Part shown: positions 18,229 to 21,263 of the stretch, in pieces
Numbering within the stretch: position 1 is the stretch's first letter
How the letters are laid out: each line of letters begins with the position of its first letter
DNA from: an uncultured Bacillales bacterium
Lineage (GTDB): Bacteria > Bacillota_I > Bacilli_A > Acholeplasmatales > Anaeroplasmataceae
Length of the DNA stretch: 64,000 bases
Assembly (NCBI GenBank): GCA_946617655.1
Contig: CAMOKL010000004.1
Coordinates: 7,086 to 71,085, forward strand
Direction: 5' to 3'
Notes under the pieces: model-generated
Database searches by the model: none
What the model was told of the DNA's origin: nothing
What the model saw: the letters and a program-made list of their open reading frames with translations, nothing else
Made by a program: the position numbers and the translations under genes

Positions 18229-19893
18229 TTATAGTTTGAAGCCACTCTTTAGGCCACATGTTTCATTAAATACTAATCTTTCTTCATTTGAATCTTGATC
18301 AGTTACATAATAACCATTTCTAATGAATTGGAAATGATCTAATGGTTTAGTATCCTTTAAAGATGATTCAACATAACCATAAGTTATATTCATAGAATTT
18401 GGATTTAACTTTTCCATAAAATCTAAATCCTTATTCTCTTCTGTTTCAATTAATAATGGTTCAAAATGTCTAAATTCAGCCTTAATTGCAGTAGTCTTTT
18501 CAACGAAATGAATATTACCATTAGGCTTTCTTTCGTTAAATCCTGAATCACTTTTTGTCATAGGATCATATGTTGCATGAATTAATGTAATATTACCATC
18601 CTTATCCTTTTCAACTGATGTTGCAGTAATAAAGTATGCTCTCATTAATCTAACTTCAACACCTAAAGCAAGTCTCTTCCACTTCTTGTTAGGCTTTTCT
18701 TCAATGAAGTCTTCTCTTTCAATATATACATGACGAGAGAATGCAATTTTTCTTGAACCAGCTTCTTCATTTTCTTGATTGTTTGGTGCATCAAGCCATT
18801 CAACTTGTCCTTCAGGATAATTATCAATTACAACCTCAACTGGATTAATAATTGCGTTAGGTCTTATAGCCTTAAGCTTTAAATCATCTCTTAAAGCTTC
18901 TTCTAATGCTTCTTCAGGTACTGTAGAATTAATTCTTGATAAACCTGTTGATAAGATGAAATTTCTAATAGAATCAGGTGTATAACCTCTTCTTCTTAAT
19001 CCACATAAAGTAGGCATTCTTGGATCATCATATCCAGATACCTTCTTAGAATCAACTAAAGCTCTTAAATAACGCTTTGACATAATTGTATTTGTGATAT
19101 TTAATCTACCAAATTCAATCTGATGAGGACGTGATTTATATTCAGCTTCAATCTCACAGTTTTCAACAACCCAATCATATAATACTCTATGGTTATCATA
19201 TTCTAGTGAGCATAATGAATGCGTAATTCCTTCAAATGAATCCTGTAATGGGTGTGCAAAATCATACATAGGGAAAATACACCACTTAGTACCCTGTCTA
19301 TGATGATTTATATGTAGGATTCTATACATTACTGGGTCACGCATGTTAATGTTTGGAGATGACATATCAATTTTAGCACGTAAAGTCTTTTCTCCATCTT
19401 TATATTTTCCTTCTCTCATTTCTTCAAATAAACGAAGGTTTTCTTCAACAGTTCTATCTCTATATGGAGAATTCTTACCAGGTTCACTTAATGTACCACG
19501 ATATTTAGAAATTTCTTCTTGAGATAAATCATCAACATATGCAAGTCCCTTCTTAATTAAAAGTACTGCCTTTTCATATGTTTTTTCGAAATAATCAGAA
19601 CCATAAAAAATATTCTTTGGAGTATATCCTAACCAAGCTAAATCCTCAATTATACCAGAAACGAATTCCTTATCCTCTTTAGCTGGGTTTGTATCATCAA
19701 ATCTTAAATTTGTATATCCACCAAAAGATTTAGCAAGTTCAAAATTTGTAACGATTGCTCTCGCATGACCAATGTGTAGATATGCATTTGGTTCAGGTGG
19801 GAATCTTGTAATTATTTCCTTTACTAAACCATTATCTAGGTCTTCTTGCATTTTAGTTTTAATAAAATTATTAATCTCTGCCATAATAATCAC
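18229..19893 (-). CDS. glnS: Glutaminyl-tRNA synthetase
   Basis: TRFPPEPNAYLHIGH, LRFDDTNP, PMYDFAH, ITHSLCSLEY and MSKR motifs, plus the GlnRS anticodon beta-barrel (FQFIRNGY). Confidence 0.95.
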   Translation of the reverse strand: MIIMAEINNFIKTKMQEDLDNGLVKEIITRFPPEPNAYLHIGHARAIVTNFELAKSFGGYTNLRFDDTNPAKEDKEFVSGIIEDLAWLGYTPKNIFYGSDYFEKTYEKAVLLIKKGLAYVDDLSQEEISKYRGTLSEPGKNSPYRDRTVEENLRLFEEMREGKYKDGEKTLRAKIDMSSPNINMRDPVMYRILHINHHRQGTKWCIFPMYDFAHPLQDSFEGITHSLCSLEYDNHRVLYDWVVENCEIEAEYKSRPHQIEFGRLNITNTIMSKRYLRALVDSKKVSGYDDPRMPTLCGLRRRGYTPDSIRNFILSTGLSRINSTVPEEALEEALRDDLKLKAIRPNAIINPVEVVIDNYPEGQVEWLDAPNNQENEEAGSRKIAFSRHVYIEREDFIEEKPNKKWKRLALGVEVRLMRAYFITATSVEKDKDGNITLIHATYDPMTKSDSGFNERKPNGNIHFVEKTTAIKAEFRHFEPLLIETEENKDLDFMEKLNPNSMNITYGYVESSLKDTKPLDHFQFIRNGYYVTDQDSNEERLVFNETCGLKSGFKL

Positions 19894-20143
19894 CCTTTTT
19901 AAAATATATGCTAGTATTATACTACAAATATAGTAAAAACTCCACTAAATCAAAAATAAAATTGTTTTCAATAATATATTAAACTTTTATGTTGATGAGT
20001 ATAAAAAAAATTTAAAAATTTTTAATTTGCATTTTTTAAGCATTTTTTCGAAAAAAGAAGCTATTTTTACCTGTTATTTTAAGTTAAAGTTCTATTTATA
20101 AAATGATTTTGGAAAATCAGTCAATAGTCCATTTTTACCTCAT

Positions 20144-20172
20144 TTGACAACGATTTTTTTTAGGTATAAAAT
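20144..20172 (+). promoter_or_regulatory. Sigma70/SigA promoter of the small hydrophobic ORF
   Basis: TTGACA (20144-49), 17-bp spacer, TAAAAT (20167-72). Confidence 0.75.
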
Positions 20173-20265
20173 CACCTTGTCAGAGTAAAATCTGCAATCA
20201 TTTTTAAGGAGACAATGTTATGATCCGAGGTCTGGAGGAAACGATGGGCTAACAGGAGGTATACT

Positions 20266-20337
20266 ATGGATTATTATATAATCCTAGTTATTATATTAAT
20301 CATTTTAATGGTTATTATAATGACTGTTAAAAAATAG
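20266..20337 (+). CDS. 23-aa hydrophobic peptide, candidate type I TA toxin (MDYYIILVIILIILMVIIMTVKK)
   Basis: Strong AGGAGGT RBS 5 nt upstream; a single TM-length hydrophobic stretch ending in KK; tandem TAG-TAA stops. Too short to appear in the ORF track. Confidence 0.7.
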   Translation: MDYYIILVIILIILMVIIMTVKK

Positions 20338-20369
20338 TAACACCTCTTAGTCTTCATTGTTTCCAAGAA

Positions 20370-20437
20370 ATGAGAAAAGAGCAAGGTTGCAGCCTTGCTC
20401 TTTTCGTTTAATTAGTAACTTCTTAGCCTTCATTGGC
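20370..20437 (-). ncRNA. Candidate ~65-nt convergent antisense RNA (type I antitoxin)
   Basis: Bounded by the minus-strand promoter at 20444-20472 and the bidirectional terminator. Its 5' part is complementary to the 3' UTR of the peptide mRNA through a direct repeat. Confidence 0.5.
20374..20405. terminator. Bidirectional intrinsic terminator
   Basis: GAAAAGAGCAAGG-TTGCAG-CCTTGCTCTTTTC, a perfect 13-bp inverted repeat with a T tract in both directions. Confidence 0.85.
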
Positions 20438-20443
20438 ATAATC

Positions 20444-20472
20444 ATTATAACATCTTTTATACAATTAATCAA
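20444..20472 (-). promoter_or_regulatory. Promoter for the convergent small RNA
   Basis: Minus strand reads TTGATT, 17-bp spacer, TATAAT with an extended TG motif. Confidence 0.65.
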
Positions 20473-20498
20473 ACTCTAAAATTTTCTAAAAATTCGTA

Positions 20499-21263
20499 TT
20501 AATTATTCTTTTTATAGATATAATATAATCCTTTTAATAAAATATTTGGATCATATGTTATTTCATGCTTTGAATATGGAATAATTAATTTAGCAAGACC
20601 ACCTGTTGAAATAACACTTGTATCTTCACCTAATTCTTCTTTTATTCTATCAATCAAACCATCTATCATAGATGCAGTACCATAAATCATACCAGACTGC
20701 ATACATTCAACTGTATTTTTACCAATTAAATGCTTAGGAGCCTCAAGTGATATAAATGGTAATTGAGATGCATGAGATGATAATGAATCAAGTGATGTTT
20801 TAATACCAGGTATTATCATACCACCAATATGATTATTGTCCTTATCAATAACTGATAATGTTGTTGCAGTACCCATATCAATAATTATTGCAGGTGTCTT
20901 ATATTCTTCAATAACACATACTGCATCACAAACTCTATCTGCACCAAGTGTCTTTTGATTATCAATTTTAATATTTAATCCTGTTTTTATGCCATGTCCG
21001 ATAATAAATGGCTTTTTCTTTAATAAAAGCTCTAAGGCTTGTGATACTTCATGAGTTATTTCAGGTACAACAGATGATAATATTGCACCTTCAATATCTT
21101 TAATATTAATACCATATACTTGAATCATTAATCTGAAATTAATTAAGAAATCCATTTCTGTTTTTCTTTTATCTGTACCTATTCTTCCTTGAGCTATAAT
21201 ATTAGTTTTATCTAAAAAGCCTACAACTATATTTGTATTTCCAATATCAACTGCAAGTATCAT
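20499..21263 (-). CDS. coaX: Type III pantothenate kinase
   Basis: AVDIGNTNI, LGADR and IIIDMGTATT motifs. Confidence 0.95.
   Translation of the reverse strand: MILAVDIGNTNIVVGFLDKTNIIAQGRIGTDKRKTEMDFLINFRLMIQVYGINIKDIEGAILSSVVPEITHEVSQALELLLKKKPFIIGHGIKTGLNIKIDNQKTLGADRVCDAVCVIEEYKTPAIIIDMGTATTLSVIDKDNNHIGGMIIPGIKTSLDSLSSHASQLPFISLEAPKHLIGKNTVECMQSGMIYGTASMIDGLIDRIKEELGEDTSVISTGGLAKLIIPYSKHEITYDPNILLKGLYYIYKKNN

Follow-up and report, generated by a model that had tools for sequence, protein, structure and literature searches.

Does the 605-nucleotide (nt) gap between glnS and coaX in an uncultured rumen bacterium hold a gene, and if so, of what kind? The gap belongs to a 64,000-nt stretch of DNA (assembly GCA_946617655.1, contig CAMOKL010000004.1, positions 7,086–71,085; hereafter the window), and no public assembly that carries it has a gene call inside it. 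A preliminary description made from the letters of the window had proposed an unannotated candidate type I toxin–antitoxin (TA) locus here, at 20144–20472. Our analysis points to a module of ~330 nt that encodes a putative membrane toxin, folds the toxin messenger RNA (mRNA) back over its own ribosome-binding site (RBS) and faces a predicted antisense small RNA (sRNA). The anatomy is real, the pairings are strong, conservation exceeds that of neutral sites, RNA contigs match the predicted toxin transcript and no curated family contains the peptide; a candidate type I TA locus is therefore the best reading. That it is a new, chromosomal type I variant, combining a par-like layout with a lock akin to those of hok and aapA, has in our judgement a somewhat better than even chance of being right.

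The core of the module is an open reading frame (ORF) at 20266–20337 (+ strand), encoding a hydrophobic peptide of 23 amino acids (aa), MDYYIILVIILIILMVIIMTVKK, the putative toxin. As first described, it is led by AGGAGGT (20254–20260), a Shine–Dalgarno (SD) sequence placed 5 nt ahead of the start codon (ATG 20266), and its transmembrane-like sequence ends in KK. Among SD-led ORFs of 15–60 aa in the 64-kilobase (kb) window it is the most hydrophobic by far, with a best 15-residue value of 3.97, and the only one to exceed 3.1. The description had also held that the Fst motif is missing. The peptide indeed contains no proline or glycine and has no match to PF13955 at E ≤ 10, a profile that an Fst control sequence matches at E = 8.7e-5. 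Pfam, NCBIfam and PADLOC hold no match to the peptide either; by Pfam and NCBIfam it is no member of the Hok/Gef, Ldr or AapA families. Neither the peptide and its variant nor any of four antisense ORFs has an exact match among the 15 billion proteins of a large collection.

Two facing promoters and a common terminator frame the ORF, all three as anticipated. The predicted toxin-mRNA promoter (TTGACA-17-TAAAAT, 20144–20172, + strand) has 11 of 12 consensus matches, the best in the region; it is identical in the sister species that also carries the module (L007), and would start transcription at ~20179. Opposite it, the predicted sRNA promoter (TTGATT-17-TGnTATAAT, 20472–20444, − strand) carries an extended −10 TG and is the joint second match in the region. 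Its −10 box and TG are invariant across all variants; its −35 box occurs as TTGATT, TTGATA, TTGAAT and TGGATT. This AT-rich DNA holds no excess of promoter-like hexamers as a class (10, against 6.1 ± 2.8 in shuffles), so the promoter evidence consists of position and conservation, not of the motif match alone. Between the promoters, a hairpin at 20374–20405 scores as an intrinsic terminator on both strands (0.2 expected) and would serve the toxin mRNA, the predicted sRNA and the pan-coa operon in common. Facing promoters and terminator are all kept in L007. The terminator loop is polymorphic in several runs: at 20387–20392, T20387C occurs together with G20392A, giving the loop's own reverse complement, a hairpin-loop flip.

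The predicted mRNA (20179–20412, + strand, ~234 nt) folds back on itself with a minimum free energy of −81 kcal/mol, against a shuffle mean of −44.6 ± 4.6 (z = −7.84). The preliminary description had suggested that 5′ and 3′ untranslated regions (UTRs) are complementary, such that the mRNA can bury its own RBS. This is borne out by an inverted repeat in which 20237–20260 pairs with 20342–20364. The SD-side arm, GGAAACGATGGGCTAACAGGAGGT (20237–20260), contains the toxin SD. Its partner is a 3′UTR element at 20335–20364 (blocks TAG, TAAC, ACCTC, TTAGTC, TTCATTG and TTTCC), which is at once the anti-SD arm and the first copy (DR1) of a direct repeat, and which is followed by the 3′ half of an outer clamp, AAGAAATGA (20365–20373), paired with ATCATTTT at 20197–20204. 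In the predicted fold, 20338–20373 of the 3′UTR zips onto 20197–20260 of the 5′UTR: ACCUCU pairs with AGGAGGU, UUAGUC with GGCUAA, CAUUGUUUCC with GGAGACAAUG (alternative partner GGAAACGAUG) and AAGAAAUGA with AUCAUUUU. A second 5′ partner, GGAGACAATG at 20208–20217, also fits CATTGTTTCC, again as an inverted repeat. A hairpin is predicted at the very 5′ end (20179–20195), which it may protect.

The energies of this lock are considerable. The 5′UTR arm (20230–20268) and the 3′UTR form a duplex of −30.3 kcal/mol; the whole 5′UTR reaches −32.5 kcal/mol, exceeding each of 500 shuffles (mean −17.1, best −28.9). To expose the toxin SD and start codon takes 13.4 kcal/mol in the free mRNA and 8.4–9.5 kcal/mol when the 3′ element is held or removed.

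Further RBS–ATG mini-ORFs had been noted in the leader, and these can be read directly from the sequence. The region (20206–20252, + strand) contains SD1 (AAGGAG) and has ATGs at 20215, 20220 and 20244, behind AAGGAG and GGAGG. They encode M-L-stop, MIRGLEETMG and M-G-stop, respectively. The longest frame (20220–20252, 10 codons) ends in TAA at 20250–20252, 1 nt before the toxin SD, and the computed cost of opening SD1 is only 1.8 kcal/mol. The leader ORF may be translationally coupled to the toxin ORF.

The second component is the predicted sRNA. A direct repeat was said to make its 5′ end complementary to the anti-RBS element; the repeat is present (20335–20359 and 20413–20435, with a 2-nt indel), and its core (20342–20359 and 20418–20435) is identical at 16 of 18 positions. 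The second copy (DR2, 20413–20435, − strand) supplies the single-stranded 5′ domain of the sRNA, which would extend over ~72 nt (20366–20437, − strand), with a 31-nt open 5′ domain and then the terminator hairpin (fold z = −4.5), overlapping the toxin mRNA by 47 nt at the terminator. This 5′ domain pairs with 20333–20359, the RBS-locking element, at −28.6 kcal/mol (500 shuffles: mean −12.6, best −21.6), and the complementarity takes in the stop codon. The SD arm in cis and the sRNA 5′ domain in trans therefore compete for a single 3′UTR element, with nearly equal energies (−30.3 and −28.6 kcal/mol). The 5′ domain, GGCUAAGAAG, is in effect a copy of the SD arm, GGCUAACAGGAGG, in the same orientation. 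Because the sRNA mimics the SD-side arm, a translation block like that of par RNA II cannot simply be assumed. Pairing of the repeat with the anti-RBS element stands, but a translation block does not follow from it: alone it would unmask the RBS, lowering the opening cost from 13.4 to ~9 kcal/mol.

Contigs from the region are found in metatranscriptome assemblies. Four RNA-run contigs lie inside the predicted toxin mRNA: X23 (20189–20366), X24 (20192–20381), X21 (20218–20379) and X26 (20230–20385). None of the four crosses the predicted start at ~20179 and none passes the left arm of the terminator, whereas DNA-run contigs cross both limits freely (for example, 20082–20449, 20230–20493 and 20318–20520). 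X23 depth on L007 is 2–10 over the operon and glnS, 3–5 over the module and ~0 over the adjoining AT-rich spacer. These data support a discrete transcript with the predicted mRNA boundaries, at ordinary abundance and on a strand that the contigs do not specify. Depth over the toxin region does not exceed that of the neighbours, and we therefore gave up the notion that the toxin mRNA is unusually abundant and stable. On the other side of the terminator, RNA-run contigs 20359–20509 and 20382–20551 (X25 and X27) run from the coaX 3′ end across the sRNA promoter to the terminator; read-through of the pan-coa operon would accordingly carry the whole sRNA sequence in its 3′UTR. Two other candidates in the region were rejected. 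A promoter-like TTAACA-17-TAAAAT within the toxin ORF (20302–20330, − strand) probably gives no antisense RNA of its own, since RNA contigs extend to the right of the site and the spacer to its left is uncovered. A T-box or other glnS leader is improbable, given the 480 nt that separate the terminator from the glnS start, the absence of an Rfam match and the same lack of RNA coverage in the spacer.

Comparison with L007, whose CoaX and GlnRS share 91% and ~95% protein identity with those of the window, shows the module in the same place and unusually well preserved. Positions 20100–20275 are 100% identical, 19900–20400 are 95–100% identical and the whole module is ~96% identical, against 73–93% in the flanking genes. 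Four-fold degenerate sites differ by 46.5% in coaX and 26.1% in glnS. Of the seven mRNA substitutions, six are at unpaired positions of the consensus fold, and the seventh turns a U·G pair into U–A in the terminator; C20341T lengthens the SD helix. In the repeat core, 15 nt are identical and a sixteenth pair is gained (−24.9 kcal/mol); the outer TAGTAAC part has drifted out of register. The peptide varies by Y4F and V8A in L007 and by K23N in a third haplotype, with the frame open in all. None of its 21 unchanged codons carries a synonymous change, whereas 17–33% of such codons do in the flanking genes. The AT-rich spacer at 19900–20140 is featureless, has almost no RNA coverage and is 95–99% identical between both species; it is either under constraint or part of a recent recombination tract.

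A natural deletion allele also occurs. One contig (run X32) lacks 317 base pairs (bp; 19975–20291), with 19974 joined to 20292 across 8-bp copies of TATATTAA at 19975–19982 and 20292–20299. The toxin gene thereby loses its promoter, its leader, its SD and nine codons from the start; DR1, the terminator and the predicted sRNA gene remain. Another run from the same study has the intact allele. Loss of the toxin with retention of the antitoxin is the direction of decay that a TA pair tolerates, and lends circumstantial support to the TA reading.

The module is confined to a lineage-specific junction. The window has a G+C content of 29%, and the genomes nearest to it in the databases were assembled from metagenomes and bear the labels Acholeplasmatales or Anaeroplasmataceae. 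Metagenomes from sheep and bovine guts contain the locus; the host is an uncultured rumen mollicute of the Acholeplasmatales/Anaeroplasmataceae. On one side of the gap lies glnS (18229–19893, − strand) and on the other coaX (20499–21263, − strand), the final gene of a panB-panC-panD-coaBC-coaX operon. Among genomes compared by CoaX, only the two sister species carry the module. L008–L010 have a different gene after coaX (radical-SAM hemN-like or radC among relatives), and upstream of glnS, relatives by GlnRS (82–86% identity, Anaeroplasma bactoclasticum among them) carry rimI/tsaD or unrelated ORFs. In these comparisons (L008–L010, L203–L208), the module marks a synteny or rearrangement breakpoint; this position and its absence from relatives are as expected of an accessory module. 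One of the relatives, L010 (CAVFNL010000032.1), is labelled Parabacteroides distasonis; the contig has an Anaeroplasmataceae-type panBCD-coaBC-coaX operon with a CoaX 76% identical to that of the window, and is probably mis-binned.

The proposal of a candidate type I TA locus, possibly of a new family, is thus supported in part, by anatomy, pairings, conservation, RNA contigs and the want of a curated family; the direction of any sRNA effect cannot be assumed. Several observations weigh against it. Covariation is absent, with 0 of 82 pairs changed on both sides (in two species, with seven substitutions and few population variants). With only two carriers and an equally conserved spacer at 19900–20140, the high identity could stem from a tract that recombined recently. 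Each of the three peptide changes is non-synonymous, and selection on the protein as such is thus not demonstrated. By thermodynamics alone, sRNA pairing to the anti-SD arm would loosen the RBS block. The RNA evidence consists of assembled Logan contigs, which lack strand information, and the locus is absent from the strand-aware RNA runs with raw reads; metatranscriptome depth over the toxin region is similar to that of its neighbours, leaving room for DNA carry-over; and in a library of uncertain type ('RNA?') one contig spans the toxin promoter (20066–20236). No contig among those of the RNA runs is confined to the sRNA (20366–20437).

Set beside known systems, the module resembles par of the Enterococcus faecalis plasmid pAD1, which has convergent promoters, a bidirectional terminator, oppositely transcribed direct repeats, an intramolecular structure that hides the SD and a structured 5′ end (PMC7472228, PMC8594479). 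Its predicted layout is that of a Gram-positive group, Fst/RNAII and SprA1/SprA1as, whose antisense RNA, encoded towards the 3′ end, leaves the ORF uncovered and makes contact beyond the overlap (PMC8594479). The module shares with par/Fst its convergent promoters, a single bidirectional terminator that gives complementary 3′ hairpins, a direct repeat that provides a second complementarity outside the overlap, and a predicted sRNA clear of the ORF. In its predicted fold the mRNA also hides its SD, by way of the 3′UTR, and bears a hairpin at its 5′ end (20179–20195). The differences are as marked. There is one repeat pair, whereas par has DRa and DRb; the mRNA copy sits just after the stop codon, whereas the par repeats cover the translation initiation region; and the target of the predicted sRNA is the anti-SD arm, where that of par is SD and start. 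What hides the SD here is a long-range fold-back of the 3′UTR; in par it is a local 5′ stem-loop. The peptide also departs from Fst, having 23 aa, no PXXXG, no acidic tail and no match to PF13955.

The lock itself finds its counterpart elsewhere. In hok/sok of plasmid R1 and aapA1/isoA1 of Helicobacter pylori, long-distance pairing of 5′ and 3′ ends keeps the full-length toxin mRNA inert, and the antisense RNA, encoded opposite the 5′ leader or ORF, acts on the 3′-processed, activated mRNA. A 5′–3′ fold-back of this sort is present here in silico (z = −7.84; SD opening 13.4 kcal/mol), and the short leader frame that ends at the toxin translation initiation region recalls mok–hok coupling. Unlike in hok and aapA1, the sRNA would be encoded past the 3′ end, the one suitably placed − strand promoter being 3′ of the ORF, and 3′ trimming would remove the sRNA target. 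The peptides are unrelated, and the host lineage is Gram-positive where theirs are Gram-negative. A third likeness is to SprA1/SprA1AS of Staphylococcus aureus and bsrG/SR4 of Bacillus subtilis, where toxin mRNA and antitoxin RNA likewise overlap at the 3′ end of the former. SprA1AS works by way of a 5′ domain outside the overlap, which pairs with the toxin translation initiation region, and binding of SR4 at the bsrG 3′ end both hastens decay and makes the structure around the RBS tighter. Similarly to SR4, the sRNA modelled on the terminator and tail of the module raises the cost of SD opening from 13.4 to 15.0 kcal/mol. In contrast to SprA1AS, its 5′ domain targets the anti-SD element; SR4, for its part, overlaps the toxin ORF region and has no direct repeat, and the SprA1 and bsrG peptides are unrelated to that of the module. 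The module thus resembles a hybrid of the par and hok/aapA designs, and is a member of neither.

How such a hybrid might work can be sketched from these features. The + strand mRNA of ~234 nt would encode a 23-residue, single-helix membrane peptide, the presumed toxin. In the finished transcript, the 3′UTR (20338–20373) would fold onto the 5′UTR (20197–20260) and bury the toxin SD and start, giving a stable, translationally inert message. A convergent sRNA of ~72 nt (20437 to ~20366, − strand) would be made as a separate transcript and end at the common bidirectional terminator. The lock would open transiently, most plausibly when a ribosome on the accessible leader ORF reaches the toxin SD. 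Only then would the 3′UTR element become single-stranded, and it could be captured by the sRNA 5′ domain. Bound at the terminator and tail alone, the sRNA would tighten the lock; with the duplex and the terminator overlap together, it may lead to cleavage and 3′ decay of the opened mRNA. Other 3′-overlapping Gram-positive systems, txpA/RatA and bsrG/SR4, follow this last course, from duplex to cleavage and 3′ decay.

A more specific and rather speculative extension, which we regard as improbable on present grounds, is that the sRNA senses how the toxin mRNA is folded and not its ribosome site, the 3′UTR element being both the cis lock and the sole landing pad of the sRNA. If so, the sRNA would engage only messages that have just opened, and would either destroy the translating sub-population or act as a key. 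Because pan-coa read-through carries the sRNA sequence, transcription for coenzyme A biosynthesis could feed the switch. Such a logic has not been described for the catalogued type I families, and the module would be the first type I system to be described from a mollicute lineage.

The mimicry between sRNA and SD arm also admits the opposite sign of regulation. The peptide might be no toxin but a small membrane protein whose synthesis is regulated, with the sRNA, or the 3′UTR of the coaX operon, activating it by titration of the anti-SD arm, in the manner of DsrA/rpoS anti-antisense control. The 5′ domain is SD-arm-like and pairs with the anti-SD arm, holding DR1 brings SD opening from 13.4 down to 8.6–9.5 kcal/mol, RNA-run contigs cross coaX into the sRNA region such that read-through would carry the element, and many small hydrophobic proteins are non-toxic. 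Even unlocked, however, the translation initiation region would still cost ~8.5 kcal/mol to open, and DR1, buried in the folded mRNA, is not readily reached by an RNA acting in trans. Facing promoters, a common terminator, a direct repeat and a KK-tailed helix of 20–30 aa are moreover the signature of Gram-positive type I systems (PMC7472228, PMC8594479), and the module is accessory, as its two carriers, the breakpoint and the deletion allele attest. We consider activation unlikely, albeit the alternative that survives best.

Less probable again, and in our view quite doubtful, is an mRNA, for a toxin-like or other small protein, that locks itself with no dedicated sRNA. The terminator would then simply end the pan-coa operon, the − strand promoter would be a chance AT-rich match and DR2 the relic of a duplication. 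The lack of promoter enrichment over shuffles suits this account, as do the RNA contigs over 20366–20437, all of which reach into coaX, and the outer repeat part (TAGTAAC) that is out of register in L007. It does not explain why pairing of the sRNA 5′ domain with DR1 (−28.6 kcal/mol) beats all 500 shuffles (best −21.6), why both species share the 15-nt core unchanged, with 16 bp in L007, or why TGnTATAAT is invariant across all variants seen. RNAs of ~70 nt are usually lost from standard RNA sequencing libraries, and absence of one from such libraries says little.

That there is no functional gene at all, only a recent recombination tract whose ORF and pairings are by-products of AT-richness, an operon terminator and the glnS promoter, would fit the equally conserved featureless spacer (19900–20140), the restriction to two species without covariation and an RNA depth not above that of neighbours, but is highly improbable given the fold (z = −7.84), two independent duplexes that each beat all 500 shuffles, an ORF that is the only one of its kind in 64 kb with an ideally spaced consensus SD, and RNA-run contigs that keep to the predicted transcript boundaries where DNA-run contigs do not.

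Annotation of type I systems is incomplete because gene callers pass over peptides as short as theirs. Should the module be what the candidate TA reading makes of it, such systems would extend to wall-less rumen bacteria. The full text of the T1TAdb paper (24 families, 218 species) does not contain the words Mollicutes, Tenericutes or Firmicutes, and our literature search turned up none reported from Mollicutes or Acholeplasma as a type I system. Within ~330 nt, the module would unite a par-type terminator and repeat-guided antisense RNA with a hok/aapA-type self-lock, two principles known so far from separate families. A single 3′UTR element would arbitrate both controls, making for a compact test bed of how mRNA folding and antisense pairing are coordinated. 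The module is known from two uncultured species, and the functions suggested for it are read from sequence.

Searches for relatives returned little beyond the orthologues. An nhmmer search of the module against the window and 1.67 Mb of retrieved loci found only these, and plasmid and phage blastn gave no match to it. In viral contigs, the 15-mer repeat core had random matches only (a double match in L156 is a coding repeat) and two more specific patterns had none. Rfam yielded nothing at gathering score in the whole window, a permissive local scan giving only chance-level hits of 14–22 bits. Exact-pattern scans miss paralogues below ~90% identity, so these results do not establish the absence of a wider family. 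A scan of 241 million metagenome records for an SD followed by MDY[YF]II retrieved 70 stretches, three of them orthologues and the rest unrelated proteins, chiefly of an 80-aa family starting MDYFII. One stretch, a 26-aa hydrophobic ORF, MDYFIIIPWIISIVLIWIFFKGKLKK, on an unrelated metagenome contig (L259, 6736–6816, − strand), was set aside for its different context. This ORF lies directly behind a terminator-like hairpin and a GGAGG, and the N terminus it has in common with the module's peptide is a product of the search pattern.

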